Virus record (IMG/VR): IMGVR_UViG_3300031521_000001
Reading direction: 5' to 3' (one strand)
Length of the DNA: 64,000 nt
From: a virus
The notes under the pieces were generated by a model. The model saw nothing but the letters and a program-made list of their open reading frames with translations. It did not search any database and was not told the origin of the DNA. Shown here one piece after another: positions 11,054 through 43,222 of the stretch; the first letter of the stretch is position 1; each line of letters starts with the position of its first letter. Both the position numbers and the translations under genes were made by a program.

Positions 11054-11431
11054 ATGATTATATTTAATATATATAGTCATATGAAATACTTAAAAACATT
11101 TGAATCATTATTATATAGTGATTATAAGGCTGGAGATTACGTACTACTTGATTTAATTAAAATAAAATCTAATAACAAAGATAATGATTATGAAATGGAT
11201 GAAGTTGATGAATATGGCAATTCTATACCAATTGATGAATTTGCATTAATAAAGGATAAGACTGTTGAATTAAATAATGGACTTTATTTATATAGTGTAA
11301 CTTTTTATAATTATAATAATGAAAAAAATGATTCTTATGGTGTTGAGTCAGATGAAATAATAAGAAAGCTAAATACAAATGAGATAGAAGAGTTCAACAG
11401 AAAAAAAGAAGCATTGAAATACAACATATGA
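11054..11431 (+). CDS. family A protein (MKYLKTFE...GDYVL...ALKYNI)
   Basis: array III. Confidence 0.75.
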   Translation: MIIFNIYSHMKYLKTFESLLYSDYKAGDYVLLDLIKIKSNNKDNDYEMDEVDEYGNSIPIDEFALIKDKTVELNNGLYLYSVTFYNYNNEKNDSYGVESDEIIRKLNTNEIEEFNRKKEALKYNI

Positions 11432-11862
11432 AATATTTAAAAAAATTTGAAAATAGATTAACTAACGTATTTAAATCTAAAGATGTAGATATGTGGGATG
11501 AATATATAGAAACTGAGTTAGAAACCGAATATGGATATAATAAACTCATTGGGGCTGTACATGCTGGAAATCTTAAAAGATTTGAATATTTATTACCAAT
11601 ATATAAAAATAAAATAAATAATATTTATGATGGAAAGAATGTATTAATTGAGGTTATAATACGAGATATTGATTTATATGAAAAAAAGAAAATGATTGAA
11701 TTATTATTGGATAATGGAGTTAATTATAAGCTCGAGTTTGGAGGTGATACATTTTATGATTTGATTACTAATGATAAATTAAAAAAATGGTTTGACGATA
11801 AATATCCAGATATAGTAAAAGAGCTTAATTTATATAAAAATACAAATAAATATAATTTATGA
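11428..11862 (+). CDS. family A frame carrying an ankyrin-like repeat core (MKYLKKFE...NKYNL)
   Basis: LIGAVHAGNLKRFEYLL...LLLDNGVNYK ankyrin-like repeats. Confidence 0.75.
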   Translation: MKYLKKFENRLTNVFKSKDVDMWDEYIETELETEYGYNKLIGAVHAGNLKRFEYLLPIYKNKINNIYDGKNVLIEVIIRDIDLYEKKKMIELLLDNGVNYKLEFGGDTFYDLITNDKLKKWFDDKYPDIVKELNLYKNTNKYNL

Positions 11863-12173
11863 AATATATAAAAACATTTGAAAAATTAGATAGAAAAATA
11901 AAAAAAGGAGATTATGCTATAATCGATTTTAAAACAACTAATCCTGGAGTTACAGAATTTTTTCAAAATAATATTAGTAAAATTATCGAAGTAAGAGGAA
12001 TATGGATTAAATTTGGTTATAAATATGTACCAGAAGAAATCAAGGAATATTTTTATAAATCTAGAGTATATTATATATATCAAATAGAGTTAAACTTAGA
12101 AGATGTTTACTCTTATGCTATCTCAAAAGAAAAATTAGAATTAGAATTATCAACAAAAAAATTCAACATATGA
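11859..12173 (+). CDS. family A small protein (MKYIKTFE...GDYAI...KKFNI)
   Basis: array III. Confidence 0.75.
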   Translation: MKYIKTFEKLDRKIKKGDYAIIDFKTTNPGVTEFFQNNISKIIEVRGIWIKFGYKYVPEEIKEYFYKSRVYYIYQIELNLEDVYSYAISKEKLELELSTKKFNI

Positions 12174-12748
12174 AATATATAAAAACATTTGAATTATCAA
12201 CTTTTTATGATGAAAAAGATATATTTTGGTATATCCATAATATTAATTTACCTAAAATTAAAGAATTAGTATCTGAAATACCTAATATTAATCTTAATAT
12301 TAAAGATAGTACTGGTGAAACACCTTTGCTTCAGTCAGTTAGGTTTAGTTTATATAACGTGTTTAAATTTTTGATAGAATCAGGAGCAGATGTAAATTGT
12401 ACATGTACTAATGGAGTCACTCCATTGATGATAGCAGCAAGAAATAAAAAAGAAGAATTTGTTCAAGATTTAATAGATGCTCACGCAGATTTGAATATTA
12501 AAAATGATGACGGCGAAACTGCATTAATTATGATTTCTAGCTACACAGATAAAAAGGCTTTTAAAATAATTGAAAACTTAATTGAAAGTGGTGCAGATTG
12601 GAATATATCTGATAATTATAATAATACTTTTTTGATGCATTTACAACCTGCATATATGAAAAAAATAATAGAAAAATATCCAGATAAATATGAAGAATTT
12701 ATTAAAGAATATAATTTTAAAAATGATATAAAAAAATTCAATTTATGA
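12170..12748 (+). CDS. ankyrin-repeat protein in family A frame (MKYIKTFE...KKFNL)
   Basis: 3-4 ankyrin repeats (TGETPLLQSV..., NGVTPLMIAARNKKEEFVQDLIDAHADLN, DGETALIMIS...). Confidence 0.8.
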   Translation: MKYIKTFELSTFYDEKDIFWYIHNINLPKIKELVSEIPNINLNIKDSTGETPLLQSVRFSLYNVFKFLIESGADVNCTCTNGVTPLMIAARNKKEEFVQDLIDAHADLNIKNDDGETALIMISSYTDKKAFKIIENLIESGADWNISDNYNNTFLMHLQPAYMKKIIEKYPDKYEEFIKEYNFKNDIKKFNL

Positions 12749-13146
12749 AATATATAAAAAAATTTGAAAGTGAAATATCAGATGATGAGAAAGCTATTTT
12801 GGATAGTCAAAAAGCGGAAGATAATTATCTTAGACAAAGATATAAAGATATGAAGAAATATTTATTTTTTAAAGATAGAACGGGTAATATAGATAATGGA
12901 ACATATTTTATATTAGAAAAAGATAGAATGGAAGCAGTATATGATCACACTAACCTTTTTATTGTGACTAACAAATTATATACATATAATTTGAACACAG
13001 ATAAATTGAAAAATGAAAAAAGAAAAGATAAGCATTACAATTTAAATAAATATAAACTTGGTTATATAATGACAGATTCAGATAATTTACAGGATTTATT
13101 AGATTATATACCTGCTCTAAAACACACAAATAAATTTAATCTATGA
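12745..13146 (+). CDS. family A protein with unrelated core (MKYIKKFE...TNKFNL)
   Basis: array III. Confidence 0.75.
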   Translation: MKYIKKFESEISDDEKAILDSQKAEDNYLRQRYKDMKKYLFFKDRTGNIDNGTYFILEKDRMEAVYDHTNLFIVTNKLYTYNLNTDKLKNEKRKDKHYNLNKYKLGYIMTDSDNLQDLLDYIPALKHTNKFNL

Positions 13147-13616
13147 AACACATTAAAACGTTTGAAAATGCATTCACTGACATATTTAAAAAAAGGAAGA
13201 AATTACCTCACGAAGTTATTAATTTTGGTGATGTATTAACTAAATTTATAGAGAAAAATATTGATATGGAATGGGATGTTTATTCAAATACATATGAAAG
13301 TAGTAATAAAAAATATTATGATGTTGTAAGAATTTTTATTGACCCACATGATATAGATGATGCTGCTGAAGTTTTGGAATTGCATTATAATTATGATAGA
13401 AATTCTATTTTATATTGTTACCATCCAATAATGAATTTTATGGAAGATATTAAAGACTATTTAGGAAATATTGTAAAGAATAGTTCTATTGAAGATGTTT
13501 CATCTGCTGGAGATAATAGATATTGGATACCACTAGATAAATTACCTGAAATAATAAATAAAATAAATAGCTCTGATTTTGATTATTATAAGTCGACAAA
13601 AAAATTTAACATATGA
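13143..13616 (+). CDS. family A protein with unrelated core (MKHIKTFE...TKKFNI)
   Basis: array III. Confidence 0.75.
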   Translation: MKHIKTFENAFTDIFKKRKKLPHEVINFGDVLTKFIEKNIDMEWDVYSNTYESSNKKYYDVVRIFIDPHDIDDAAEVLELHYNYDRNSILYCYHPIMNFMEDIKDYLGNIVKNSSIEDVSSAGDNRYWIPLDKLPEIINKINSSDFDYYKSTKKFNI

Positions 13617-13990
13617 AATATATAAAAAAATTTGAACGTAAAAAGAATGAATTTTATACAATTAAAAATGAATTAATTAATGCTGTATATCATGGTAATT
13701 ATTCTAAAACTAAAAAATTATTAGATTCTGGCTTTGATGTTAATAGTAATATAGATGGAAGAAATTCTGCATTATTATATGCTTCTTATAAAGGAGAATG
13801 GAATATTTTATTTCTAATATTAAAATATAATCCTGATTGGTACATAAAAGATATTTCAAAATATGATTTTATTGACTATATAAATGATCATATAGATGGA
13901 GATAAAGTAATAGAAAAAATAACAAAAAAATATCCTGTTAAATACAATGAGTATTTAATGATAAAAAAATCAGAAAAATTTAATTTATAA
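13613..13990 (+). CDS. ankyrin-repeat protein in family A frame (MKYIKKFE...SEKFNL)
   Basis: ankyrin repeats (LINAVYHGNYSKTKKLLDSGFDVNSNIDGRNSALLYAS...). Confidence 0.75.
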   Translation: MKYIKKFERKKNEFYTIKNELINAVYHGNYSKTKKLLDSGFDVNSNIDGRNSALLYASYKGEWNILFLILKYNPDWYIKDISKYDFIDYINDHIDGDKVIEKITKKYPVKYNEYLMIKKSEKFNL

Positions 13991-13992
13991 AT

Positions 13993-14298
13993 ATGAAAGT
14001 AGAAAAATTTAATGAGCATAATTTTACAACATTTGATGATGATATTGTATATGCAGGTAAATCTAAATACCCAGTAGGCACCAAAATTAAATTTAAAGAT
14101 GATGGTGAGTATTTAACTGGTACTTTGACACATCCATTTGGTTATGGTGATGTTGGTGTATTCTTAGATGAAAAAGGTAAATATAAATATGATAGGGTAT
14201 CACTAAAAAACAATGAATATACAGTAATTGATGATGATGTTGATAAATTCATTAAAGATCACAATTTCAAAAAAGATATAAAAAAATTCAATTTATAA
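13993..14298 (+). CDS. family A-related small protein (atypical N-term MKVEKFNE; C-term IKKFNL)
   Basis: last gene of array III. Confidence 0.7.
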   Translation: MKVEKFNEHNFTTFDDDIVYAGKSKYPVGTKIKFKDDGEYLTGTLTHPFGYGDVGVFLDEKGKYKYDRVSLKNNEYTVIDDDVDKFIKDHNFKKDIKKFNL

Positions 14299-14344
14299 GT
14301 GAAATAGCTTATAACTTATGTTTATAAGTGAAATAGCTTATAAC
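14295..14344. repeat. 21-bp direct repeat ataagtgaaatagcttataac, 2 copies (14295-14315 and 14324-14344), overlapping the stop of the upstream gene
   Basis: exact duplication 29 bp apart. Confidence 0.8.
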
Positions 14345-14345
14345 G

Positions 14346-14385
14346 AAAAAATCCTATCTAATTTTTCAATTAGATAGGATTTTTT
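14346..14385. terminator. 18-bp-stem hairpin aaaaaatcctatctaatt-tttc-aattagataggatttttt
   Basis: perfect inverted repeat with A/T runs. Confidence 0.7.
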
Positions 14386-14682
14386 TTAATATTGCTTGAG
14401 AATACAGCATTATAGAGAAGAACTTTAGAAACTATTATTTTTTTCTCACTAACATTTGAATTAGTATTCTTCTAATACAATCTAAGAAATAATTAAACTT
14501 CTTTTGTTGTTAGATAGTTCGGTAAAATGATAAAAAATAATTAAATTCATTAAATTTTAATTAATATTTTACTTTTTTTTCTTCATTCATAGAGGATCTA
14601 ATGGATTTACTCTCCTGAAGCGTTAATTTGGGTGAACTCAACCCTATTTTAATATTTTTTTATTAAAAATAAATAAATGAAA
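14386..14682. ncRNA. about 300-nt ORF-free segment bracketed by two strong hairpin terminators; candidate small-RNA gene (strand unknown)
   Basis: delimited by hairpins at 14346-14385 and 14683-14719; contains GC-richer segments (ggatctaatggatttactctcctgaagcg, gggtgaactcaaccc). Confidence 0.3.
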
Positions 14683-14719
14683 AAAAACACTACTTAATAT
14701 TGAATTAAGTAGTGTTTTT
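14683..14719. terminator. hairpin aaaaacactacttaat-attg-aattaagtagtgttttt
   Basis: about 13-bp stem with A/T-run flanks. Confidence 0.6.
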
Positions 14720-16039
14720 ATTTGTAATAGGCTGAGAAATATACCTTATACAGAAGAATCTTAAAAAGTTATTATTGTTTCTACTTTCTTTCCACTAATA
14801 TTGGTTTCCCTAACATTAGTAATTCTCAATGACAGTCAATTAGATTAACTAATCCTTTTGTTGTTAATTACTCTCTCAGTACTTATTACCTATCTAGGTT
14901 GCCACCCAAACTCAATCTTGCTACAGATTTAAGGAATTTTTCTGAAAATCATGTCAAACTTGGGGTTCTTCACGGCTACGACGATTTTCATCTCATAACT
15001 AGTAGTCACCTTTCATCAACAACAGTCGAACACTTTTCCTTTATTTGTTTTATTTTAATTGTGCATTAAATTTGCAATTTAAAGTTTGTTTTGTGGATAA
15101 TGAAAGTAGTGGTTCGACAACCAGCGTCTCCATCTTTTGAACGGAAATATACTAAACTACTCTCTGAGATATCCCTATCTCCATATTTTAAGTCAACTAA
15201 GATACTCTCATAGCACTTGGTAATGCTAAGGTAACCTTAATAACAGCACCACCTGTACATTGTATTACAATCTAATATTACCTTTCGGTTTTAAGCTAAC
15301 TCTCATAATGGACAACGCAATTATACAACTGGAAATCGTATTTCTTGCAATAATCCTTCAGGTTATTCTTATTGATGTTCCCATCTCACTTAGACTACCC
15401 ACATAGCCTTTGCATTAAACCACTTTCTCTACAGTGTTACCCTCGATAATTAAGGTTTAATGATATCCTGATTGTCTGCTCAAACACTAAATAATGTATT
15501 AATAACAAATTAACTAACTATTAACTATTCATATTAATGAGTATGTGAAGAATCTTACCGAAGCAAAATCAATTACACACAAAAAAATGTGTCAAATTAA
15601 TAATTGTTGTATCTGTTGATTAATAAATAATTTAATGTCGCAAATATATAGAAACAACTACATATTCACTTTATCCTACTTTCGTAGTTTATTTAATGAC
15701 TACAGACAGCCAAATATTTTCAATTTTTACAAAGAACGCTTTTAATAAAAAACAAACATTTAGATTGTAGTAAAAATTTATACTATCACTTCTTAACTAA
15801 AAGAAGTTAGTTCTAATAAAAGGAATTAACCTTTTAAACTTGTAAATTAACCATTTTCATAGTTATATATACTAATCAATCTAAATGTGTTGTTTCTTGT
15901 TGTTTCAAGTACGTTTACTTGAAAAATGACACAAATCTATTTCAGTCCATTTTTTTCTTTTCAGAACTTTTTTCAGTGGAACAATAAACATTTGGTATGT
16001 TCATTATATTTACTGTTATAATATAAATCCTTAAATTTG
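14720..16039. other. unique ORF-free, GC-richer (pyrimidine-rich on the plus strand) noncoding segment of the 3.8-kb island
   Basis: no ORF of 60 aa or more on either strand; composition differs from coding flanks. Confidence 0.5.
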
Positions 16040-16607
16040 TATTACATTTGCAACATTTACTTCTGTAATATTAATCGTACACTTTTGCAAGCTTCAAGTT
16101 GGCTTTTGCCTTTGATTATTTTTATTACTTTTTCAATTTCATTAATATCTAAGTGTGTTTAGTTGCACTATCTCCTTTTGCAAGCTTCAAGGTGGTTTCT
16201 GTACCATTAGATTTTTCATTGCTTTTACTATCTAAGTGTGTTTAATTGCACTATCTCCTTTTGCAAGCTTCAAGGTGGTTTCTATACCATTAGATTTTCA
16301 GTTTCATTTACAATTTAGTTTATTTCTACATGTGTTCATTTATAGTTATACACCTATTGCAAGCTTCAAGGTGATTTCTGTATCAACATTTTTCATTGTA
16401 TTTGAAATATATAAGTGTGTTCATTTGCACTATCTCCTTTTGCAAGCTTCAAGGTGGTTTCTATACCATTATATTTCTCATTGTATAAGCAAGATAATTA
16501 ATATGTAAGTGTGTTCATTTGCACTATCTCCTTTTGCAAGCTTCAAGGTGGTATTTTATACCATTACATTTTTCATTGCTTCAATCTGAAATTTGATTTG
16601 TTTCATT
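16040..16607. repeat. tandem minisatellite RA, 83-95 bp units, about 6 copies (about 16040 degenerate, 16148, 16231, 16326 degenerate, 16411, 16504); core ctaagtgtgttcatttgcactatctccttttgcaagcttcaaggtggtttctataccattagattttt
   Basis: head-to-tail near-identical units read directly from the sequence. Confidence 0.85.
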
Positions 16608-16608
16608 A

Positions 16609-16693
16609 TTGTAGTTCAAAATTACAAAAAGTTTTTTGTTTTACCAAATATTTAATGTTAAAGTTTTGAACTTTTTCAAGTACTCTTACTTGA
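16609..16693. repeat. RB element copy 1 (about 85 bp, MITE-like): TIR agttcaaaa...ttttgaact, terminal hairpin tcaagtac-tct-tacttga
   Basis: repeated at least 6 times in the island. Confidence 0.8.
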
Positions 16694-16815
16694 ATGAGTA
16701 TTAAAAAACCAAGTCATTTATAAGTTCTGTTAGCTTCTCAGCTTAGAAAAATAAACTTTCATTTGTCATATTTATTCTTGTAACTTTACAAATCTGCGAA
16801 ATGTATTATTATCAA

Positions 16816-16885
16816 TCTAAGTGTGTTCATTTGCACTATCTCCTTTTGCAAGCTTCAAGGTGGTATTTTATACCATTAGATTATC
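16816..16885. repeat. RA unit, isolated copy 6
   Basis: near-identical to the 16504 unit. Confidence 0.8.
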
Positions 16886-16915
16886 TATTAAATCTGATAT
16901 ATGTTTTGCTTTTTT

Positions 16916-17003
16916 ATTGTAGTTCAAAATTACAAAAAGTTTTTTGTTTTACCAAATATTTAATGTTAAAGTTTGAACTATTTTTTCAAGTACTCCTACT
17001 TGT
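16916..17003. repeat. RB element copy 2
   Basis: same sequence, including the caagtactcctacttg hairpin. Confidence 0.8.
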
Positions 17004-17083
17004 TTTTGTTATGAATAATAATCAAGGAACTTACTTCTTCTGACAAGTCAGTGTTTCAGTGTTAAAATTAATATTCATAGTGA

Positions 17084-17166
17084 AGATAGATGGAGTTGAA
17101 CCCAGTGTCAGTAACACTTGCCTTCTGCACAATTCGAATCGTGCTGCACCCTGTGTGCTTATCTTC
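17084..17166. ncRNA. GC-rich structured element flanked by a 7-bp inverted repeat (gaagata...tatcttc), with internal stem gcac-aattcgaatc-gtgc
   Basis: local GC-rich island in an AT-rich noncoding region; contains a T-arm-like ggagttgaacc but no complete tRNA cloverleaf. Confidence 0.3.
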
Positions 17167-17500
17167 ATCATTTTTATAATTTAATCAATAGTCAGTCCTT
17201 GTAGAGAAATAATAGCAGTCAGTCACTGATCATCTGACATTAGGTTCACACATCATCAAAAATTAATTTGATAGGTAATTTCCACGGTGTAGTTACTATT
17301 TACATTTATAACAAGATAAGTTCTACAGTTCTCATATCTATTTCAATGGACTTTTCATCTTTGATAATTTTCATTATCATTAACTCACCACTATTAGCAT
17401 CAAATTCATCTGGTTCATATATATTTTGTTACAAACATATACACTCTGATTTCAGATATTGCTGATATTTCTTGTTTAAATCTGATTTTTTGATTTAAAT

Positions 17501-17592
17501 TATTGTAGTACAAATATACAAAAAGTTTTTTGTTTTACCAAATATTTTTTGATATTTTTTCTACATTTTTTACTCAAGTACGTTTACAAGAG
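17501..17592. repeat. RB element copy 3 (divergent)
   Basis: attgtagtacaaatatacaaaaagttttttgttttaccaaatatt...actcaagtacgtttacaagag. Confidence 0.65.
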
Positions 17593-17764
17593 TTTTAAAA
17601 AATCAAATCATTTTTCAGTTCTTTTTATCTTCACAGATTAGAAATAACATTTTTTCATTTGTTATATTTACTTCTGTAACATTAAATTTATGTATTTTCA
17701 GTTTCACTATAATCTTGTTCAAGATTAAGGGTGGTTTCCTTACTACTAAATTGTGATTACTTTA

Positions 17765-17833
17765 ATCTAAGTGTGTTCATTTGCACTATCATTCTCTTGC
17801 AAGCTTTGAGAGGTTTTTATACCATTAGATTTT
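17765..17833. repeat. RA unit copy 7 (divergent)
   Basis: ctaagtgtgttcatttgcactatcattctcttgcaagctttgagaggtttttataccattagatt. Confidence 0.7.
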
Positions 17834-17861
17834 TTTCAATCTGAAATTTGATTTGTTTTTA

Positions 17862-17930
17862 TTGTAGTTCAAAATTACAAAAAGTTTTTTGTTTTACCAA
17901 ATATTTAATGTTAAAGTTTTGAACTTTTTT
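17862..17930. repeat. RB element copy 4 (lacks the terminal hairpin)
   Basis: attgtagttcaaaattacaaaaagttttttgttttaccaaatatttaatgttaaagttttgaact. Confidence 0.8.
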
Positions 17931-17971
17931 TCAATTGAAATTTAATTTTTGTGATTATATTTCTTTTGATA

Positions 17972-18056
17972 TTGTAGTGCAAAATTACAAAAAGTTTTTT
18001 GTTTTACCAAATATTTAATGTTAAAGTTTTGAACTTTTTCAAGTACTCTTACTTGA
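17972..18056. repeat. RB element copy 5 (complete, with hairpin)
   Basis: near-identical to copy 1. Confidence 0.8.
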
Positions 18057-18071
18057 AGTTTTTTGTTTTTT

Positions 18072-18135
18072 ATTGTAGTACAAAATTAATAAAAGTTTTT
18101 GATACTACCAAATATTTAATGTTAAAGTTTCAGTT
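18072..18135. repeat. RB element copy 6 (partial), abutting the stop of 18136..18474
   Basis: attgtagtacaaaattaataaaagtttttgatactaccaaatatttaatgttaaagttt. Confidence 0.65.
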
Positions 18136-19457: not shown

Positions 19458-19999
19458 GCAAACCAATTAAAATAATAGGTATAATATTATTTAGTTTTAT
19501 ACTTATTTTTATAGCATATGAAATATTCATACCAACTAAAGATTATCCTTTTAGTAAAATTGAAATTGTTAATTATCATCATCTATATAACTTAACAAAT
19601 AGAACTTATCTAGATACAATTGTAGAATCAGGATTACAATCACTTAAAATTGATACTGTTACTGTTGTTATTAAAAATATTGATAAATCATCAATAGTAA
19701 TTAATGGCGAAGATATTGATTTGAAAGCATATATAGTAGTTAATAACGATACATATTATATATTTATTGGTGACTATAGTAGAAATGAAAGTATTACAAT
19801 ATTATCTCATGAATTAATTCATTTAAGACAATATTATGACAAAATGTTATTAATTAGTAGAACAGGAGTTTATTTATGGCTTGGTGATGTTATAGATATA
19901 TCAAATATGGATTATAATCAAAGACCTTGGGAAATAGAAGCATTTGATAATCAATCAGATAATGCAAATGCAATGAAATATATTTTATATAAATTATAA
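19454..19999 (+). CDS. membrane-anchored putative zinc metallopeptidase (HExxH)
   Basis: N-terminal TM segment; SHELIHL motif. Confidence 0.45.
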   Translation: MSKPIKIIGIILFSFILIFIAYEIFIPTKDYPFSKIEIVNYHHLYNLTNRTYLDTIVESGLQSLKIDTVTVVIKNIDKSSIVINGEDIDLKAYIVVNNDTYYIFIGDYSRNESITILSHELIHLRQYYDKMLLISRTGVYLWLGDVIDISNMDYNQRPWEIEAFDNQSDNANAMKYILYKL

Positions 20000-20341
20000 G
20001 TTGAATTTTTTTGATGCATTAATTATATTATAAAACTCTTCTGTTGTAAATTTATTTGGAAAAAAGTATTTACTATCTCCGTCATCTTTATCACAAATAA
20101 TATATCCTTTTTTATCTCTAAGTGTTATTATATCTCCATCACCTATTTTATAAACATTATTATAAGATCTCTTACCATTATATTCTGAATATTTTAAAAT
20201 AGAATCAATAATATATATCTCACCATATTTCAAATAATTACTCTGAAGTCCAATATATATAATTTCATCACCTATTTTTAAATCATTTAAGTAATCAGGA
20301 TTATCATGTTGTACTTCATATATTTTAAAATTTGTTATCAT
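19994..20341 (-). CDS. family A-related small protein on the minus strand (MITNFKIYE...GDEIIY...KKFNL)
   Basis: C-terminal KFNL; ATGA overlap. Confidence 0.7.
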   Translation of the reverse strand: MITNFKIYEVQHDNPDYLNDLKIGDEIIYIGLQSNYLKYGEIYIIDSILKYSEYNGKRSYNNVYKIGDGDIITLRDKKGYIICDKDDGDSKYFFPNKFTTEEFYNIINASKKFNL

Positions 20342-20691
20342 ATATTAAATTTATTAGTTTGTGTTAAAAATTCTAATTTTGATTTATCATCAGATATATG
20401 AATCAATTCTTCTAATGAAAAAGACATGGCATTTTTATATTTTTTGCTATAATCTATTTCGCTATGATAAATTTGATATGATTCTAAATAATCAGGAATA
20501 TAATCAAATTGAACTATAAATCTATCCCAACGATATTTAATATCAATAATTTCTATTATCTGTCCTATATTACTTAATGTAAAACTATTTAGTTCAGTAA
20601 AATCAATACTTTCACATATAACATAATCTCCAATAGATGGTAGTATTGATGATTTTTTATTTTTTTCATATATTTTAAAATCTGTTATCAT
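20338..20691 (-). CDS. family A-related small protein (MITDFKIYE...GDYVI...TNKFNI)
   Basis: paralog. Confidence 0.7.
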   Translation of the reverse strand: MITDFKIYEKNKKSSILPSIGDYVICESIDFTELNSFTLSNIGQIIEIIDIKYRWDRFIVQFDYIPDYLESYQIYHSEIDYSKKYKNAMSFSLEELIHISDDKSKLEFLTQTNKFNI

Positions 20692-20987
20692 ACATTAAAA
20701 TTGTTGGATTTATTAATTAATTTCAGTCTATCTTCTAATATTTTTCTAACTGATGAGTATTTGTATACATCTTTTTTATCTATCCAAAAACCATCTTCAT
20801 GATAATAATCTTTAAAATCAATTTTATATTGTGATTTACTTTTATTTATTATTTTAAAAATATTATTGCTTATTTTGGTTTTATATTGAATATCATAATT
20901 TATTCCTTTAAGAACAGGTATAACATAATAATCAACAGGTATTTCTATCTGGTTATTAACAAATTCATATTTTTTTATATATTTCAT
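20688..20987 (-). CDS. family A-related small protein (MKYIKKYE...SNNFNV)
   Basis: paralog. Confidence 0.7.
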   Translation of the reverse strand: MKYIKKYEFVNNQIEIPVDYYVIPVLKGINYDIQYKTKISNNIFKIINKSKSQYKIDFKDYYHEDGFWIDKKDVYKYSSVRKILEDRLKLINKSNNFNV

Positions 20988-21093: not shown

Positions 21094-22737
21094 ATGTTAA
21101 AATATGATGATTATAATAAATTGAATGAGGCTTTCTTTCATCGTAGTAAAGATGAGTTAGAAAATCTCATACATTCATTTAAAAGCTTGATTATAAATCT
21201 AAAACAATCAATAGATAAAAAATATACATTAGATTTCTATAAAACTCAAATCAAAGAGGATTTAGAATCATATAAAATAAATATATTGAATAATTACAAT
21301 AAAAATACAATTAGTAAATTTAAAGATTTGTTTAAAGAATTTTTAAATAATGTAGATAATGACATAATTAAGCATATGAAATTAGGTAAATTTGCTAATG
21401 ATATATTAAAGATATATTCTATTAATAATTCTTTTGATATTAACATAAAGAATGTAAATAGTGTGTTTAAAGCTTATCTTGATAATGTTGATAGATATAT
21501 AGACAACACATATGATTTTTTCTACAATAAGATTGAGACTGATAAATCATATGAACCATATAATAAAATTGATATTAAAATAAATAAAGTCCCTATTGAT
21601 GAATATCAAAAAACAAAATACAAATATCAAATTGAGTTATTAAAATTACAAGAATGGATTACATACAACAATAAAAAAGTATTGATTATATTTGAAGGTA
21701 GGGATGCTGCAGGAAAAGGTTCAGCGATTAGAAATATCACAAGATTTCTAGATCCAAAGCATTTTAGAGTACAGACATTTGGTATACCTACAGAAGAAGA
21801 GAGTAATAATTGGTTTGATAGATATGAAAAATCTTTACCTAAAAATGGAGAAATTGTTTTTTTTGATAGATCTTGGTATACAAGAGGTTATGTTGAACCA
21901 GTGATGAAATATTCAACTGAAGATAAATATAATAAATTTATGAAAGAAGTCAATAACTTTGAAGATAAATTAATAGATGATGACATCATACTTATAAAAA
22001 TATGGTTCTCCATATCTCAAGATGTACAAAAAATGAGATTTGAATTAAGAAAATCTAATCCATTGAAATACTGGAAGTTTAGTAAGAATGATGAGCAAAC
22101 ATTAGACAAATGGGATGAATTTACTAAATATATAAATGAGATTTTCAAAAAAACAAATACTAAAGATTCTCCTTGGATAATAATAGATGCTGATGATGAA
22201 AATTATTCAAGATTAGAATCTTTCAATAGTATAATAAAATCAATAGAAAAAGATAAATCAAACATCAAAGAGGGTGGAATAAAAGTAATATTTGAAGATT
22301 TAGATGGACCATTAATTCCATATGATAAAAATTCAGATACCGACTATCATAAATTTTTTAATGATCCAGAAAAATGGAGTAAGACTGCTATGAGCAATTT
22401 AAACAATATTATTGAAAAGACAGAAGCAAAAGTAGTATTATCTTCTTCATATAGAGATGATAAACCATTAAGCGAAATAGAAAAGATGATGAAAACTGCT
22501 GGATTTAAATATAAAATATATGACGTTGTTCCAAATGACAAATCTAAAAAACGTGGATCTGATATAAAAGATTGGTTAAAGAATAATAAATCAGTTAGTA
22601 ATTTTATTATTATTGACGATAATAAGCATGACTTATATGAAGTATTTAGCAAAAAACACATTGTTAAAACTACTCATGAATTAGGAATAACAGATGATAT
22701 TAAAGATGAAGCTATTGATAAATTAAATACTAAATGA
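21094..22737 (+). CDS. ppk2: polyphosphate kinase 2 (PPK2) with an N-terminal extension and a C-terminal HAD-like phosphatase domain
   Basis: Walker A FEGRDAAGKGS and PPK2 motif FFDRSWY; C-terminal HAD motifs FEDLDGPL (I), VVLSSS (II), IIIDDNKHD (IV). Confidence 0.8.
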   Translation: MLKYDDYNKLNEAFFHRSKDELENLIHSFKSLIINLKQSIDKKYTLDFYKTQIKEDLESYKINILNNYNKNTISKFKDLFKEFLNNVDNDIIKHMKLGKFANDILKIYSINNSFDINIKNVNSVFKAYLDNVDRYIDNTYDFFYNKIETDKSYEPYNKIDIKINKVPIDEYQKTKYKYQIELLKLQEWITYNNKKVLIIFEGRDAAGKGSAIRNITRFLDPKHFRVQTFGIPTEEESNNWFDRYEKSLPKNGEIVFFDRSWYTRGYVEPVMKYSTEDKYNKFMKEVNNFEDKLIDDDIILIKIWFSISQDVQKMRFELRKSNPLKYWKFSKNDEQTLDKWDEFTKYINEIFKKTNTKDSPWIIIDADDENYSRLESFNSIIKSIEKDKSNIKEGGIKVIFEDLDGPLIPYDKNSDTDYHKFFNDPEKWSKTAMSNLNNIIEKTEAKVVLSSSYRDDKPLSEIEKMMKTAGFKYKIYDVVPNDKSKKRGSDIKDWLKNNKSVSNFIIIDDNKHDLYEVFSKKHIVKTTHELGITDDIKDEAIDKLNTK

Positions 22738-22741: not shown

Positions 22742-23149
22742 ATGAAATATTTAAAAAAATATGAAATGTTAAACAAATTAGACACATCAGATAATCCTAT
22801 ATTTATAGAATTTATGATTAATTTCATAACATCTTTAGATTATGACTTAACCACAAATTACAATAAAAAATACTCTAGAAATGAGATATTTTTTTATAAC
22901 AAAGATATAAATTCTGAGGGTTTAAAATTTTGTATTGAAATAACAAATGATGAATTAATTTTTAAAAAATACCATAATAATTTTAAGATTATTGAAGAAT
23001 ATTTAGAAACTATCAATGGATTAAATTTAATAAATATTGATCATCACATATACAACTTTAAGATATCAGGAAATACTCTAGATATCGAAGAACAGATAAC
23101 AAAAAAGAATTTTGATATGTTTAGAGAAGCAAATAAATTTAATTTATGA
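22742..23149 (+). CDS. family A protein (MKYLKKYE...ANKFNL)
   Basis: array IV. Confidence 0.75.
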   Translation: MKYLKKYEMLNKLDTSDNPIFIEFMINFITSLDYDLTTNYNKKYSRNEIFFYNKDINSEGLKFCIEITNDELIFKKYHNNFKIIEEYLETINGLNLINIDHHIYNFKISGNTLDIEEQITKKNFDMFREANKFNL

Positions 23150-23487
23150 AATATTTAAAAAAGTTTGAATCTAAAGAAGTAGATTTATTTAATGCTATTG
23201 TAAATGACAACACAAAAAGAGTTGAATATTTAATTAGACTTAATGCTGATATAAACATTCAAGATGCTGAAGGTAGAACTCCATTATTTTATGCAGCAAA
23301 TCATGATTTTATGAGTATTGTTAATATACTTATTGAAGCAGGAGCGGATTGGAATATTATTAACAACAAAGGATATGATTTTACATATTTATTAAGTGAT
23401 AAACAATTTGATTATATTATGAAAAAATATCCTGATGAATATAAAGAATATTTAATGAAAAAAACAGCAAACAAATTTAACTTATGA
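23146..23487 (+). CDS. ankyrin-repeat protein in family A frame
   Basis: NADINIQDAEGRTPLFYAANHDFMSIVNILIEAGADWN. Confidence 0.8.
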   Translation: MKYLKKFESKEVDLFNAIVNDNTKRVEYLIRLNADINIQDAEGRTPLFYAANHDFMSIVNILIEAGADWNIINNKGYDFTYLLSDKQFDYIMKKYPDEYKEYLMKKTANKFNL

Positions 23488-23915
23488 ACCATTTAAAAAT
23501 ATATGATAATTATAAAGATAAAATGAATTCAAAGAACAAATTCAATAATATGATAAATGAGTATATACCAGGATATTACATGATATATAAATCTAATACT
23601 TATCATTGGAAGCAACATAGATACAATGAATATATAGTATTATGTAGAATTATAAATCCAGAAGTTTTTGATGAAGTGGATCTAAGATTAAACATAGATA
23701 TTCTATCTTATTTTTGTGAATTAGAACAACATGAATTAAGGGAAGATGAAAAAATAAAGACTGGAAAACAAATAATAAATCCAAATCATTCAACGTTTGA
23801 AAGATTATTTTTGTCATCGTCATTAAAAACATCTCAAGATAAATTTGAAGAATTGAAAGAAACTACATATTATCAATGGGAATTAAATAAAGTCACAGAT
23901 AAATTTAACTTATGA
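23484..23915 (+). CDS. family A-related protein (MNHLKIYDN...TDKFNL)
   Basis: array IV. Confidence 0.7.
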   Translation: MNHLKIYDNYKDKMNSKNKFNNMINEYIPGYYMIYKSNTYHWKQHRYNEYIVLCRIINPEVFDEVDLRLNIDILSYFCELEQHELREDEKIKTGKQIINPNHSTFERLFLSSSLKTSQDKFEELKETTYYQWELNKVTDKFNL

Positions 23916-24298
23916 AAACATTCAATCAATACAATGAATCTATAAAAAATAAACATTTTCCTATATATTTTAGAAGATATTATGAATCAGGTAGATATAA
24001 AATATCAGATATATATTACGACATTGAACAAGCAAATAAATATAGTATTGAATATGTTCTATTTAATAATACCACTAAAGGAGATGAGTTCTTTTACTTA
24101 TATTTATTTCCATGTAATGAAAATGAATCTAAAATTATTAGTTCTGAGTTAATAGGTATGTTTAATCTATCAAGTATATTTAATGAAGACTTAACAACAG
24201 AAGAAAATATAGAATTAATAAAAACATCAAAAAATGCGAATATTATAAATTTAGAAGATGTAAATTTAATAATAAATTCAAATAAATTTAATATATGA
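23912..24298 (+). CDS. family A variant, N-term MKTFNQYNE (T4 CTS-like), C-term SNKFNI
   Basis: array IV. Confidence 0.75.
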   Translation: MKTFNQYNESIKNKHFPIYFRRYYESGRYKISDIYYDIEQANKYSIEYVLFNNTTKGDEFFYLYLFPCNENESKIISSELIGMFNLSSIFNEDLTTEENIELIKTSKNANIINLEDVNLIINSNKFNI

Positions 24299-24726
24299 AA
24301 ACATTTATACAGTTCAATGAAACTGAAAATTATGGAGAACCAATGTACAGTAATACAAATAGAATAACTCTTAACCTTTATTCTTATAATGACGAAGAAA
24401 ATGATTTTCCTCTTTTAGAACGAGATATCAAAAAATTAGAAGAAAATAATATTTATTATATTATAATTAGTACAACAGACAATTATATTAACTCTACACA
24501 ATTTCAAACAATGTTTAAAATTTATGCATTACCAAAAAATAAAGAACAGAGAGATATAACTTATTATAATATGAATTTTTCTTATAATACTAAAATTAAC
24601 ATAGAATACAATGGTGAAAATTTAGATGAAGTTTTAGATGCAATTAAAAAAAGAAATAAAAATTTTTCAATCATAAATAAAGAAGACTTATATGTTATTA
24701 TAAATTCAAATAAATTTAATATATGA
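24295..24726 (+). CDS. family A variant, N-term MKTFIQFNE (CTS-like), C-term SNKFNI
   Basis: paralog of 23912..24298. Confidence 0.75.
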   Translation: MKTFIQFNETENYGEPMYSNTNRITLNLYSYNDEENDFPLLERDIKKLEENNIYYIIISTTDNYINSTQFQTMFKIYALPKNKEQRDITYYNMNFSYNTKINIEYNGENLDEVLDAIKKRNKNFSIINKEDLYVIINSNKFNI

Positions 24727-25082
24727 AAACATATCAACAATTTAATGAAATGAGCAATGTTGGATGTACTATATTTTTCAAAGTATATTTTAAATTTGAA
24801 AATGTGTATAAACAAATTGAGATATTAGATGAAAATAGAATAGATTATGATATATCTTATCATAATAAATTCATTAAAATAGATGCTTATGCTTATTCTA
24901 TAAGTGAGTATAATTTTCTTATATCAATTGAATTCAAAATAAATAAAAAATCACAAGAACTAATAAATCCAAATATGTCACTTGATAAAATTAGAAGTAT
25001 TGTAAAATCAGACAAAGGTTGGACGCCAACAAGTAAAGAAGAATTACCATACATTAATGATATAAATAAATTCAACTTATGA
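24723..25082 (+). CDS. family A variant, N-term MKTYQQFNE (closest to T4 MKTYQEFIAE), C-term INKFNL
   Basis: array IV. Confidence 0.75.
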   Translation: MKTYQQFNEMSNVGCTIFFKVYFKFENVYKQIEILDENRIDYDISYHNKFIKIDAYAYSISEYNFLISIEFKINKKSQELINPNMSLDKIRSIVKSDKGWTPTSKEELPYINDINKFNL

Positions 25083-25585
25083 AATATATAAAAAGATTTG
25101 AAAGTATAATAACAGAATTGAATTACTCAAGTAAAGGATTAACTTCTTTACCTGAGTTGCCTGATACATTAAAGAATTTGGGATGTCATCATAATAAATT
25201 AAGATATCTACCAGAATTACCAACTACATTAGAAGAATTGTTTTGTGGCGATAATGAGTTAAAAAAATTGCCAACTTTACCAAACACAATAACAAATTTA
25301 ATGATTCATCATAATGATTTGACAGAATTGCCAGATCTACCAGATTCATTGATAAATTTTTCATGTGGGCATAATAATTTAACTGAAATACCAAAATTAC
25401 CAAATAATTTAGTATATTTTTTATGTGATAATAATAATTTATCTGAATTACCAGAAATGCCAGAAACTGTAACTCAATTTAGTTGTAAGTATAATAATTT
25501 ACCATATGAAGATTTGAATGGATATTGGGATTGGTTTTATGATAGAAATCCAGAAAGAAAACAAGCAAAAAAATTCAACTTATGA
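25079..25585 (+). CDS. leucine-rich-repeat protein in family A frame (MKYIKRFE...AKKFNL)
   Basis: about 7 tandem LRRs of 20-22 aa (LPELPDTLKNLGCHHNKLRYLPELPTTLEELFCGDNELKKLPTLPNTITNL...). Confidence 0.8.
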   Translation: MKYIKRFESIITELNYSSKGLTSLPELPDTLKNLGCHHNKLRYLPELPTTLEELFCGDNELKKLPTLPNTITNLMIHHNDLTELPDLPDSLINFSCGHNNLTEIPKLPNNLVYFLCDNNNLSELPEMPETVTQFSCKYNNLPYEDLNGYWDWFYDRNPERKQAKKFNL

Positions 25586-26097
25586 GATATTTAAAAAAAT
25601 TTGAAAAATATAATGCATCTTTAGATTTAAATTATATTTTAGAAGATGATGTATATAGTGATTCAGATGCAATAAAATTATTAAAAAAAGTGAAATATGC
25701 TATTGACAATGATTGTGTTATTGATAATATTAATATACATTGGATGGAAAGAACTCCTTTAATTACATGCGCTGTTTTAGACTGTCATATAAAAACCCAG
25801 TCTAAATATAGAAATATATTTGAGCAAATAGCAAAAGAACTAATTAATTCAGGAGCTAATATAAATCATATAGATAAAGATAACAGAAGTGCTTTAATAT
25901 GGGCTACAGATAGAGGACATTTTGATGTAATGGAACTATTAATTGAAAATGGCGCAGATTGGAATATTATGGATGTATTCCATCATGAATTTCATGAATA
26001 TTTGAGTGATGAACATTTTGAAAAAATTATTCATAAATATCCAGAACAATATGAATTGTATAACATGAAAAACAACACGAACAAATTCAATTTATGA
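25582..26097 (+). CDS. ankyrin-repeat protein in family A frame
   Basis: ELINSGANINHIDKDNRSALIWATDRGHFDVMELLIENGADWN. Confidence 0.8.
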   Translation: MRYLKKFEKYNASLDLNYILEDDVYSDSDAIKLLKKVKYAIDNDCVIDNINIHWMERTPLITCAVLDCHIKTQSKYRNIFEQIAKELINSGANINHIDKDNRSALIWATDRGHFDVMELLIENGADWNIMDVFHHEFHEYLSDEHFEKIIHKYPEQYELYNMKNNTNKFNL

Positions 26098-26585
26098 AAC
26101 ATATAAAAACATATACTCAGAAAGAATTGGATGATAATTTGTTGAAATATTCAGCAAAACAGGCATCTTTGCAAAAAGTAAGAGAATTGATAACAGATGG
26201 AGCTAACGTTAATTGTTTTGATCGTATCAGATATAACACGCCATTAATTAACGCATCACAACAACTAAATTATAGTACAATTAAATTGTTAATAGAAAAT
26301 GGTGCTGATATAAATTTAGTAAATAAAAACAATAAAAATTGTATATTTTATATTGTTAATCAAAACACATATACTTATACTAAATATAAAAATAAAATTA
26401 ATAATATAATTGATTTATTAATTTCATCTGGAATAAATTTAAACAATAAAAATAAAAGTGATGTTGATATTTTTGATAATATTCAAGAATCAAATCCTTT
26501 TATTCTTCAATATATAATAGATAATTATCCAGAAGAATACAAAGAATATTTAATGAAAAAAACTGCAAACAAATTTAACTTATGA
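26094..26585 (+). CDS. ankyrin-repeat protein in family A frame
   Basis: LITDGANVNCFD...NTPLINASQQLNYSTIKLLIENGADINLVNKNN. Confidence 0.8.
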   Translation: MKHIKTYTQKELDDNLLKYSAKQASLQKVRELITDGANVNCFDRIRYNTPLINASQQLNYSTIKLLIENGADINLVNKNNKNCIFYIVNQNTYTYTKYKNKINNIIDLLISSGINLNNKNKSDVDIFDNIQESNPFILQYIIDNYPEEYKEYLMKKTANKFNL

Positions 26586-26902
26586 AATATATTAAAGCAT
26601 ATGAAACAGTTGAAGTCTGGAACGATAATAAAAGGATAAAAACATATGATTCATCAGAATACGAATTAAGTGATTATGTGATTTTGAATAAGCTTTATTT
26701 TCCAGATATAAGTGATAATTACACATATCTTATAGGTAAAATAATAGACATTTCAGAAAATAATAATATGTTTTATTGGGTTATTAAATTACCAGATAAA
26801 AAAGTAGTATGGACTGGAGATTATGAAATACATAAAACTATAACAAAAGAAGAATATGAAACGCTAGAAATAAAAAATTCATCAGATAAATATAATATAT
26901 AA
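26582..26902 (+). CDS. family A-related small protein (MKYIKAYE...SDKYNI)
   Basis: array IV. Confidence 0.7.
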   Translation: MKYIKAYETVEVWNDNKRIKTYDSSEYELSDYVILNKLYFPDISDNYTYLIGKIIDISENNNMFYWVIKLPDKKVVWTGDYEIHKTITKEEYETLEIKNSSDKYNI

Positions 26903-28290: not shown

Positions 28291-29013
28291 TTATTTCTGA
28301 AATGATGGTTTCAGCCACATTTTTGTGTGTTTAAAAATATAATCTCTTAATTCTGGAAATTCATTCAGCATCAAAATTGTTTTTAATGTATCATACTTAA
28401 AACACTTTGTAAGTTCATCTTGAATTCTTTCATTAGAAACTACTTTCATTTTTGATTCATAATCATAATTTTTGATAGCGATTTCAATATCATCAGTCAT
28501 TCTGAATCCTTTTGTGATACAAAAACGGACGCATCTCAAAATCCGTAGGCTGTCCTCATCAAATGTAAGTTCACATGGTCTTGGAGTTCTAAGAATTCCC
28601 ATTTTTAAATCTTTCACACCATCAAACAAGTCAATCAAAGTACCATTCTCATCAACAGCCATAGCATTTAATGTGAAATCACGTCTTATTAAATCATCTT
28701 CTAGTGTACCAAGTTCTAAAATTGGACGTCTTGTACCTTCATAATAGCCAATTTCCTTTCTTGCCATTACAAAATCTGCTGTCAATCCTTCATGCTTATG
28801 TCCTTTTGGAAATTTTGCTTTGATAGTAAAACATCTTGGTGTTGAATTGTATATAGTGTAACCATTTTTACGTAGCCATAACTCCATATCCATAAATCCA
28901 GATTCAACTGATTGATTCATATCATCTAATACAAAAGTAAAGTCAATGTCTTTACAATCAACTCCTAAAATACGGTCACGAACCGCTCCTCCCACTTCAT
29001 AAATTTTTGGCAT
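28291..29013 (-). CDS. nucleotidyltransferase, tRNA CCA-adding/poly(A) polymerase head domain (Pol-beta superfamily)
   Basis: motifs GGAVRDRILG...DIDF and RRDFTLNAM. Confidence 0.8.
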   Translation of the reverse strand: MPKIYEVGGAVRDRILGVDCKDIDFTFVLDDMNQSVESGFMDMELWLRKNGYTIYNSTPRCFTIKAKFPKGHKHEGLTADFVMARKEIGYYEGTRRPILELGTLEDDLIRRDFTLNAMAVDENGTLIDLFDGVKDLKMGILRTPRPCELTFDEDSLRILRCVRFCITKGFRMTDDIEIAIKNYDYESKMKVVSNERIQDELTKCFKYDTLKTILMLNEFPELRDYIFKHTKMWLKPSFQK

Positions 29014-30666: not shown

Positions 30667-31605
30667 TTAGAAAAAATTGGAAGCGTCAACATATTTGAAT
30701 CCACATCTTTTAGCGAATGTTTTATCACTTGTCAAATCTCCAACCATTGTACATTGTGATGAGTCAAGTTTATATTTTTCAATAAAATCTACACCTAATC
30801 CTACACCTGGTTTTCTACAATAACAAATTATTGGAGGTACTGAATGTCCACAATATTTATAATCAATATTAACTCCTAACATTTCATTTGTTTTTTCAAA
30901 ACAAGCTATTGCAGTTTCATGAGTTAATAAGCCTTTTGCTATACCGCTTTGATTTGAAACCCCTAGTAGTATATAACCTTGTTTCTGTAATTCTAAAAGT
31001 TTTTCTGTTCTACCAGGAATAATTTCTATATCATTCACATCAGTAGGGAAATGTCCTCCACTTTTAGTTACTCTTAAAGTACCGTCATAATCAAATAAAA
31101 TAGCTTTATTTGTATATTCTGATGGTTTACGTTTAAAATCAATTTTTTCTATATCATCAATTCCTTCTGATAGTTCTGGTGCTTCAAAATGTTTATTAAT
31201 TTTATAAAGTGCTGCAACAGGAAACATATGTGGATCATTAACTTTAGAATAATCACTTAAATTTGTAAACAACCTACCTTGAGTTTTTATCATTCTGGTA
31301 ACAGCATTGAACATACAATCTTCAATTTTTGTTGTGAAATAAAGACACAATACATAGTAGCCATATTTTTTTGCTAATGCAATAGCATCAGCCCTAGATA
31401 ACTTAGTAGAATATGTACCATCTAAGATAATATCTACTCCATCTATCATCAAGTTTTCAAGTTTTTTGTTGAGTGAACTTAATGTACCACCTTCAATATC
31501 TCTTGAAAGTAATGTACACTTATAATCAACCCATTTTTCAACAATACTTGATTTTCCTGCTGCTGGTAATCCACAAGTTATAACTAATTTTTTATCTTTT
31601 ATCAT
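30667..31605 (-). CDS. pnkp: polynucleotide 5'-kinase / 3'-phosphatase (T4 Pnkp-like)
   Basis: N-terminal P-loop ITCGLPAAGKSS; C-terminal HAD phosphatase motifs ILFDYDGTL (DxDGT), LLGVSNQSG, VGDLTSD. Confidence 0.85.
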   Translation of the reverse strand: MIKDKKLVITCGLPAAGKSSIVEKWVDYKCTLLSRDIEGGTLSSLNKKLENLMIDGVDIILDGTYSTKLSRADAIALAKKYGYYVLCLYFTTKIEDCMFNAVTRMIKTQGRLFTNLSDYSKVNDPHMFPVAALYKINKHFEAPELSEGIDDIEKIDFKRKPSEYTNKAILFDYDGTLRVTKSGGHFPTDVNDIEIIPGRTEKLLELQKQGYILLGVSNQSGIAKGLLTHETAIACFEKTNEMLGVNIDYKYCGHSVPPIICYCRKPGVGLGVDFIEKYKLDSSQCTMVGDLTSDKTFAKRCGFKYVDASNFF

Positions 31606-36835: not shown

Positions 36836-37159
36836 ATGAAATATATAAAGAAATTTGAAAATACTGAAGATAAACCAAAAGTTGGTGATTATGTATTGAT
36901 ATCAATTGATAATGATGAAGAAAATGATTTTTACTCTAATAATCCAGGACAAATTATTAAATTTTTTACTCTACAAAAATATAGGTTTACAGTTATGATA
37001 TCATATGGTAAAAACATTCCTGATAACATGAAAAATATATTATTACTTAATAAAAGATGTGGTTATTATAAAATTTTTGACTATGAAGATATCTTCATAT
37101 TTTCTAAAAATAAAGAAGATTTAAAACTAAAAATAGCATCAAATAAATTTAACTTATGA
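36836..37159 (+). CDS. family A small protein (MKYIKKFE...GDYVL...ASNKFNL)
   Basis: array V. Confidence 0.8.
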   Translation: MKYIKKFENTEDKPKVGDYVLISIDNDEENDFYSNNPGQIIKFFTLQKYRFTVMISYGKNIPDNMKNILLLNKRCGYYKIFDYEDIFIFSKNKEDLKLKIASNKFNL

Positions 37160-37473
37160 AATATATAAAATCATTTGAAAAAATAAATAATACAATTCAT
37201 TATAAAATTCCAGCATATCCGTTAGAAGTATATTTTATTGCAATAACTAAAATTGGTATGACACAAGATGAAATATCTCATTGGATTAATAATAAATACG
37301 CTCAATATTGGAATAACTCACATTTTAAATTTATATATTTAAATAACACATACAATGATTATACTAAAAAATATCAATGGAGTTGGACAAATAACATAAA
37401 TAAAGCAAATGAGACTGTAATAGAAATAACTGTTGAAGATTATGAAATTGATGCAAACAAATTTAACATATGA
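37156..37473 (+). CDS. family A frame with divergent core (MKYIKSFE...DANKFNI)
   Basis: array V. Confidence 0.75.
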   Translation: MKYIKSFEKINNTIHYKIPAYPLEVYFIAITKIGMTQDEISHWINNKYAQYWNNSHFKFIYLNNTYNDYTKKYQWSWTNNINKANETVIEITVEDYEIDANKFNI

Positions 37474-42432: not shown

Positions 42433-42459
42433 GTAATCACGCATTAAGTATAAAAAAAC

Positions 42460-43129: not shown

Positions 43130-43169
43130 AATTATAGTGTTTTTTAATTGTTTGACTTAATTGAATACA

Positions 43170-43204: not shown

Positions 43205-43222
43205 AAAAGTTAAATAATATTA

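Follow-up and report, generated by a model that had tools for sequence, protein, structure and literature searches.

Two invariant terminal peptides frame a large family of small, diversifying proteins in an AT-rich lineage of giant phages

The closest described counterparts of the protein family considered here are the internal proteins (IPs) of phage T4 and the packaged head proteins of giant phages. The family consists of small proteins with two conserved ends, encoded in a 64,000-nucleotide stretch of viral DNA (IMG/VR record IMGVR_UViG_3300031521_000001), the whole of which is referred to below as the window. The capsid-targeting sequence (CTS) of T4 comprises the first 10 residues of IPIII; residues 4 and 7 are the main determinants of targeting, and processing depends on residues 8 and 10 (PMC9026906). 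The T4 IP loci hold diverse proteins behind a conserved CTS (PMC3012670), and T4 Alt is processed at both ends (PMC9026906). In the T4 record NC_000866, IPII and IPIII start with MKTYQEFIAE-A and IPI with MKTFKEF (MKTFKEFTSTTTPVSTITE-A); the IP genes are located outside the head-gene block, beside tRNA genes, lysozyme and an RNA ligase.

Giant phages package proteins on a larger scale. Heads of SPN3US contain about 50 protein species and more than 40 MDa of ejection proteins (PMC7411985). Two proteins of this phage, gp53 and gp54, share identical N-terminal 15 residues at an overall identity of 34% (PMC5694885). The phiKZ-like cleavage motif is S/A/G-x-E, the propeptides removed are mostly longer than 100 residues, and a TFE cleavage site is documented in 201phi2-1 (PMC5694885).

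Members of the family encoded in the window carry an N-terminal octapeptide, MK[Y/H][I/L]K-x-[F/Y]E (consensus MKYIKKFE), and a C-terminal peptide, (A/S/T)NK[F/Y]N[L/I]-stop, which is as invariant as the first. An earlier note on this DNA, made from the letters alone, had drawn attention to the N-terminal peptide. This peptide exists, and its frequency greatly exceeds chance: counted over the window and related loci, 112 of 145 family open reading frames (ORFs) fit the pattern ^MK-x-hydrophobic-x-x-[FY]-(0-2 residues)-E, against 4 of 288 ORFs outside the family. The same note had overlooked the equally invariant C-terminal NK[FY]N[LI], and the MKT form that it placed in the foreground turns out to be a rare sub-variant. 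In a set of 572 distinct ORFs drawn from the window and from related loci, the C-motif accompanies the strict N-motif in 109 of 112 cases; two of the three exceptions end in QFNL or KYNM, and most of the 36 ORFs possessing the C-motif only have variant N-termini (MITxFKIFE, MKxxKFNE, MKT).

Within the motifs, residues are exchanged almost exclusively as Y/H at position 3, I/L at position 4, F/Y at position 7, F/Y in the C-motif and L/I at the last residue. Position 4 is I/L in 119 of 122 members and position 7 is F/Y in 120 of 122. The residue before E8 (P2) is F/Y, while P3 is variable (K, T, R, L, S, Q): T in about 40% of members and K in about 30%, so that about 40% read K-T-[FY]-E; in members with the MKT variant, P3 is F/Y. 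At the other end, the last 14 residues contain an acidic stretch followed by a hydrophobic residue at -3, and conservation reaches about 15 residues back into the C-terminal helix. The plan of the cassette is constant: an N-tag predicted to be unfolded, a short polar linker, a small body, a terminal helix and the C-tag.

Codon usage shows at which level these ends are maintained. The background in the bodies is extreme, with AAA, TAT, TTT, GAA and AAT each accounting for about 90% of their own codon pair. Against it, 76 minor synonymous codons were observed in the N-motif, where 59.5 were expected, and 19 in the K and F codons of the C-motif, where 22 were expected. Since synonymous codons vary while residues stay fixed, selection acts on the protein, and both end motifs are held by selection on amino acids. 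The earlier note had raised the possibility that the N-terminus is constrained only at the DNA level, as a regulatory site; the 76 versus 59.5 minor codons speak against this, and such a site is ruled out by synonymous codons that vary in both motifs at or above background. A scan for sigma-70 promoters returned matches no more numerous than in shuffled sequences.

The family extends far beyond the window. A profile of the subfamily with an SH3-type body matched 2,677 cluster representatives (50% identity clusters) in metagenomes at E <= 1e-3, and 1,414 at E <= 1e-10. These matches are exclusively metagenomic proteins, on contigs of 22-30% guanine-plus-cytosine (GC) content; the 143 best new ones all keep MK[Y/H][I/L]K-x-[F/Y]E together with NK[Y/F]N[L/I], KYNL being the commoner ending. 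With both tags retained in 2,677 representatives of a single body type, the selection that maintains them is strong and ancient. No match to the family was found in GenBank phages, Lak included (50,697 phage records, three different members as query), non-repeat members gave no significant match to Pfam, PHROGs or PDB, and a literature search on megaphage ankyrin families found nothing relevant. The family is new to curated resources, and its two-tag design is unlike any described system. The design is unusually clean: the two terminal peptides stay invariant, the small binding domains between them change freely. No curated library contains the family. Whatever the function of the tags, a short regular expression built from them pulls thousands of candidate host-interaction proteins from metagenomes.

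The tagged family has about 38 members in the window, and the count of more than 45 small ORFs given in the earlier note is too high. The N-motif is present in 33 window ORFs, counting a 37-residue pseudogene at 1999 and the start at 11081. About five further members comprise two with MITxFKIYE, one with MKVEKFNE, one starting upstream of the window and one truncated; the C-motif is present in 37 of the approximately 38. The genes are arranged in five arrays:

1-3227 (+): array with the end of a member starting upstream (to 351), genes at 348, 698, 1006, 1332 and 1664, the 37-residue pseudogene (1999-2112), an ORF with the C-tag only (2191-2397) and a gene at 2712-3227
11054-14298 (+): array of eight, starts at 11081 (within ORF 11054), 11428, 11859, 12170 (ankyrin), 12745, 13143, 13613 (ankyrin-like) and 13993
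19994-20987 (-): array of three, 20688-20987 (MKYIKKYE...NNFNV), 20338-20691 and 19994-20341 (the latter two with the variant N-tag MIT[DN]FKIYE)
22742-26902 (+): translationally coupled array of ten directly after the PPK2-HAD gene, starts at 22742, 23146, 23484, 23912, 24295, 24723, 25079 (leucine-rich repeat, LRR), 25582 (ankyrin), 26094 (ankyrin) and 26582
36836-39342 (+): array of eight SH3/Tudor-like genes, starts at 36836, 37156, 37470, 37790, 38155, 38463, 38753 and 39031

The gene at 13993 is the one with the variant N-terminus MKVEKFNE, and the last gene of the 36836-39342 array ends in NKYNL-TAA. The first array runs on upstream of the window, as seen in L046, and the 10 kb upstream hold at least 10 more family members; local density reaches about 10 family genes per 10 kb.

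Three consecutive genes of the array of ten carry the MKT form. Their positions and starting peptides had been read correctly in the earlier note:

23912-24298 (+): N-tag MKTFNQYNE (23912-23938), C-tag NKFNI (24281-24295), stop TGA overlapping the next ATG
24295-24726 (+): N-tag MKTFIQFNE (24295-24321), C-tag NKFNI (24709-24723)
24723-25082 (+): N-tag MKTYQQFNE (24723-24749), C-tag NKFNL (25065-25079), predicted ferredoxin-like alpha/beta body with a C-terminal helix

The genes at 23912 and 24295 are paralogs with 29% identity, and the product of 24295-24726 has no Pfam or PHROG match.

Between the two tags the bodies differ widely. In line with the earlier note, the tag precedes small bodies that are unrelated to one another and diversify fast. 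They are SH3-like, ferredoxin-like, ankyrin or LRR, or have no known relatives. The repeat modules it had listed behind the tag are likewise borne out by at least four ankyrin members (12170, 23146, 25582, 26094) and one LRR member (25079). The commonest body, found in the arrays 348-2002 and 36836-39342, has a P-x-x-GDYV signature. For this SH3/Tudor-like body AlphaFold predicts a five-strand barrel with a C-terminal helix (20 sequences, mean predicted local distance difference test (pLDDT) score 84.6), residues 1-10 scoring below 50. The model of the 24723-25082 product is a ferredoxin-like alpha/beta fold with a C-terminal helix (7 sequences, mean pLDDT 81.3), residues 4-12 again scoring below 50. 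In two unrelated bodies the N-motif is therefore predicted to lie outside the fold. Fold searches against BFVD and PDB returned only generic SH3/Tudor and ferredoxin-like folds, and SH3-type members have no Pfam match. A scan of 72 further members gave no significant Pfam match except in one ankyrin member, and no enzyme domains were found among them.

A set of small non-family genes at 42220-53185, mostly on the minus strand, starts with M-K-(I/P)-G-D-x-(I/V) (e.g., 43904-44128, 52952-53185 and 42220-42432). Their starts recall the GDYV barrel signature of the SH3-like bodies, and they carry neither terminal tag.

We infer that the two ends are docking tags handing all members to one common partner, and that the variable bodies bind or inhibit host proteins. 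As to the partner, loading into the capsid is the leading single mechanism, to which we assign a probability of roughly 0.35. The argument is one of analogy: a short terminal amphipathic peptide with a linker, placed on unrelated cargo, is characteristic of shell-loading signals. The cargo-loading peptides of encapsulins and the encapsulation peptides of microcompartments work in this manner, a short terminal amphipathic peptide and a flexible linker sending unrelated cargo into a shell, and encapsulin shells have the same fold as phage capsids. These systems differ from the family in that they are cellular, serve one or few cargoes and place the tag at one end; they share no sequence similarity with it.

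Under capsid loading, the N-tag would be a short amphipathic peptide, hydrophobic at positions 3/4 and 7 and followed by a linker, with the assembling capsid as its partner. Its action would resemble that of the T4 CTS, the proteins being loaded into the prohead and injected with the DNA, and the C-tag may provide a second contact or a second processed end. The fuller picture would be a widespread giant-phage lineage that loads dozens to hundreds of small tagged binders per capsid by means of an N-octapeptide and C-pentapeptide address and injects them as a diversifying arsenal for anti-defence or takeover, with ATGA-coupled arrays generating new cargo; in this complete form the proposal is doubtful. 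If the peptides are indeed capsid-loading signals, they would mark the largest known repertoire of virion-delivered effectors, possibly a giant extension of the T4 CTS principle, and would offer a transferable pair of tags with which cargo could be loaded into the capsids of giant phages.

Several features of the family recall the T4 system. As with the CTS, small proteins from hypervariable loci that are not otherwise related have a Met1 peptide of about 10 residues in common. The targeting determinants of T4, positions 4 and 7, are hydrophobic or aromatic, with Glu shortly after, and both predicted models place the tag outside the folded protein, as the CTS is outside the mature fold. Like the T4 IP genes, the family genes are found outside a head-gene block and near tRNA and RNA-repair genes. 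The trio at 23912, 24295 and 24723 fits MKT[YF]x[EQ]F, the form of T4 IPI-III. The MKTYQ-type match proposed in the earlier note is genuine for this trio and does not hold family-wide, being limited to the three genes and their orthologs. Its proposal of a CTS-like tag stands as far as the hydrophobic positions 4 and 7 and the location outside the predicted fold are concerned; the I/L-x-E clip site is absent.

A number of observations weigh against capsid loading of the T4 kind. The family consensus is MKYIKKFE, not MKTYQEFIAE, and only 4 of 145 members contain MKT[YF]x[EQ]F. The form MKT[F/Y]xQ[F/Y]NE is limited to the trio and the orthologs P0014, P0017, P0018 and P0019 (P0017, the ortholog of the 23912 gene, starts with MKTFNQYYE). 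In the related locus L006, the ortholog of 24723-25082 (55% identical) starts with MKYIKEYE, and for this reason the MKT form is best read, on sequence comparison, as a variant of the family motif and not as a relic of the T4 tag. The I/L-x-E cleavage site of the gp21 type is missing from the N-motif. The isoelectric point (pI) of members is mostly acidic (median 5.3; 66% below 6, 12% above 8.5), whereas T4 IPI*, IPII* and IPIII* are basic, with pI 9.0-9.7. The C-tag is conserved as strongly as the N-tag, which the CTS model does not predict and which has no equivalent in the T4 IPs; processing of T4 Alt at both ends weakens this argument. Unlike the three IP genes per T4 genome, the family genes occur by the dozen per 64 kb and are ATGA-coupled, and their bodies lack homology to those of the IPs. 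Common descent from the T4 IPs was considered and rejected, as there is no similarity beyond the tag and no match in the 50,697 GenBank phage records. The likeness to T4 lies in shape and proposed function and does not testify to common descent.

Gene context adds further points on the same side. The arrays sit amid RNA-repair, helicase, methyltransferase and homing-endonuclease genes, one of them directly 3' of the PPK2-HAD gene. No structural or head genes were seen in the 64-kb window or in about 0.7 Mb of related accessory loci, with the sequence flanking the window and P0030 included. In the related loci, inspected for head genes beside the arrays, the largest ORFs are helicases, a methyltransferase and homing endonucleases. 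However, T4 IP genes also lie outside the head block, and a non-structural context is therefore no argument against capsid loading. A tblastn search with T4 gp21 across phages gave no lead to the prohead protease of this phage.

Giant-phage heads offer a second comparison. In phiKZ, 201phi2-1 and SPN3US, many protein species are packaged, including paralog families, and the TFE site of 201phi2-1 compares with K-T-[FY]-E in about 40% of family members. Again the details weigh against a direct equivalence: the family tag has 8-9 residues and its P3 is not consistently S/A/G, whereas these phages have longer propeptides, the S/A/G-x-E motif and no C-terminal tag. No relation in sequence or fold was found between the family and the inner-head proteins of phiKZ, 201phi2-1 or SPN3US. 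The scale that the earlier note called unprecedented needs tempering, since SPN3US heads already hold about 50 protein species (PMC7411985).

An alternative partner would be a hub outside the virion, for example a chaperone, a secretion machine, or a protease or unfoldase of the host or the phage. Members would in that case be adaptors or short-lived early takeover proteins, whose ankyrin, LRR and SH3-like bodies pick targets while the constant ends contact the hub, as in poxvirus ankyrin proteins with their constant C-terminal module. We consider this rather unlikely. In its favour, selection acts on the protein and the N-tag is predicted to be unfolded; the bodies are binding modules without enzymes; the acidic character of the proteins is typical of early inhibitors; and the arrays are placed among non-structural accessory genes. 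Joint conservation of both ends fits a two-point contact, and the acidic stretch with a hydrophobic residue at -3 in the last 14 residues recalls C-terminal secretion or recognition signals. However, the hub is a postulated partner, and we know of no phage precedent for such an adaptor hub. The viral adaptor families known so far rely on conserved domains 40-100 residues long and not on motifs of 8 and 5 residues. Poxvirus ankyrin/PRANC proteins, which are many fast-evolving paralogs, combine ankyrin repeats with a constant terminal folded domain of about 50 residues, whereas the constant parts of this family are peptides of 8 and 5 residues on many folds. Were a hub of this sort the partner, the family would represent a new kind of phage adaptor system.

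The conserved ends may also serve expression. In 91 of 122 members the stop codon is a TGA overlapping the next start (ATGA), and 29 family junctions in the window are such overlaps; the ends could be tuned for termination and re-initiation at ATGA where the host makes no use of Shine-Dalgarno sequences, the effect being exerted by the nascent peptide or by the last and first tRNAs. A preference at the nucleotide or tRNA level does exist at the junction. For the Asn that precedes the last residue, 61% of members use AAC, compared with 11% in the bodies; the share is 67% before TGA overlaps and 40% before TAA. The preference puts C at -3 of the next start codon (e.g., at junction 24290-24298). 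Because two-fold synonymous codons share one tRNA, the codon test described above leaves a tRNA-level effect possible. Nevertheless, array-terminal genes ending in TAA retain the C-motif, array-first genes retain the N-motif despite unrelated upstream DNA, and the 13 non-family ATGA-coupled pairs of the same window have neither motif and quite different, unrelated ends. On these grounds, an origin of the motifs as a by-product of ATGA coupling was rejected as the sole cause. AT-richness alone would permit changes from K to N/I or from F to L/I, which are absent, and conservation running about 15 residues into the C-terminal helix is likewise hard to reconcile with an expression signal. An explanation by expression is accordingly improbable.

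Comparison of related loci shows how the arrays change. Two arrays have syntenic counterparts. For 22742-26585 this is L006, where the genes at 23912 and 24295 are missing and one further cassette is present; for 11054-14298 it is L027, with two additional cassettes. Related phages thus differ by the gain and loss of whole cassettes at the conserved junctions. Frameshifted remnants are present as ORFs at 1999 and 2496-2708. In the metagenomic relative P0025 (243 residues), two SH3-type units are joined in frame across a degraded internal C-tag/N-tag junction (...DASKLQVNIISKKLKHLKLYE...); as judged from its sequence, this protein shows that cassettes can fuse.

Gains and losses exactly at the junctions between window and L006 or L027, the fused P0025 and the remnants at 1999 and 2496-2708 would all fit a junction of about 40 nucleotides kept as a recombination substrate. 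Such a substrate would shuffle, duplicate and delete cassettes, like the flanks of hyperplastic loci in T4-type phages, with the protein ends as passengers. The codon evidence is the opposite of what a requirement for DNA identity would leave, synonymous sites varying at or above background while residues are fixed. Recombination at the junctions is better read as following from the conserved ends, and we take cassette turnover to be a consequence of these ends rather than their cause; the passenger explanation is more improbable still than one by expression.

Least probable of all is a structural role, in which the ends pack against each other or against the next family member to cap the fold or build chains: both motifs hold K-aromatic-x-aliphatic (KYIK, KFNL) and co-occur, and the aromatic residues at position 7 and in the C-motif covary weakly (odds ratio 4, p = 0.005, uncorrected for relatedness), but this covariation vanishes within the window's own clade and was dropped as a signal, being weak and not robust to relatedness, and the N-motif is undocked with pLDDT below 50 in both AlphaFold models.

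The window itself has 20-27% GC and short, tightly packed genes. Window proteins recur on a 711,471-bp contig from a metagenome. The probable length of the parent contig is about 711 kb, and related IMG/VR fragments reach 256 kb. The family belongs to a lineage of uncultivated giant phages that is AT-rich (22-30% GC). No DNA-level similarity of the window to GenBank phages was found. A window protein of 403 residues has 36-39% identity to genes of Lak megaphages (Prevotella hosts) and also matches records of Tenacibaculum, Bacillus, Xanthomonas and Burkholderia phages. The only real match to the family in GTDB genomes is a 5.7-kb contig of 25% GC binned with a Muribaculaceae metagenome-assembled genome, which is weakly in line with Bacteroidota hosts; two other GTDB matches are chance matches.

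Recognizable window genes encode phage accessory functions. Besides an HD protein, an epimerase and a TnpB-like protein, they include an RNA-repair and ADP-ribose set:

21094-22737 (+), 28291-29013 (-), 30667-31605 (-), 6020-6823 (+): PPK2 fused to a 'Swiss Army Knife' HAD domain, tRNA nucleotidyltransferase, polynucleotide kinase/phosphatase and microbial-type PARG

The TnpB/IS605 OrfB-like protein (486 residues, 40631-42091, plus strand) contains Cas12f1-like TNB and OrfB_IS605 domains, and a radical-SAM gene (39719-40612) directly precedes its gene.

A stretch of 3.8 kb (14300-18100) without ORFs of at least 50 residues contains a full-length match to GOLLD RNA (RF02032) at 14729-15164 (-), with 243 bits and E = 6.6e-68. 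Beside it, at 16090-18130, a 67-nucleotide repeat occurs eight times and a 75-nucleotide repeat six times; the spacing of the former within clusters is 79-96 nucleotides, with gaps of 312 and 871 nucleotides. Neither repeat has an Rfam match at E <= 0.1 or a fold more stable than those of shuffled sequences. Two long tRNA-like genes were found with Rfam at 54490-54578 (-; 41.4 bits) and 54710-54809 (-; 40.6 bits), of which ARAGORN calls only the first, as a tRNA-Phe with the unusual anticodon AAA. Another tandem family, smaller than the tagged one and unrelated to it, is encoded at 3956-4904 (-); its proteins have about 70-87 residues and start with M[KR]YLCKKTY or MRLKCIKTY.

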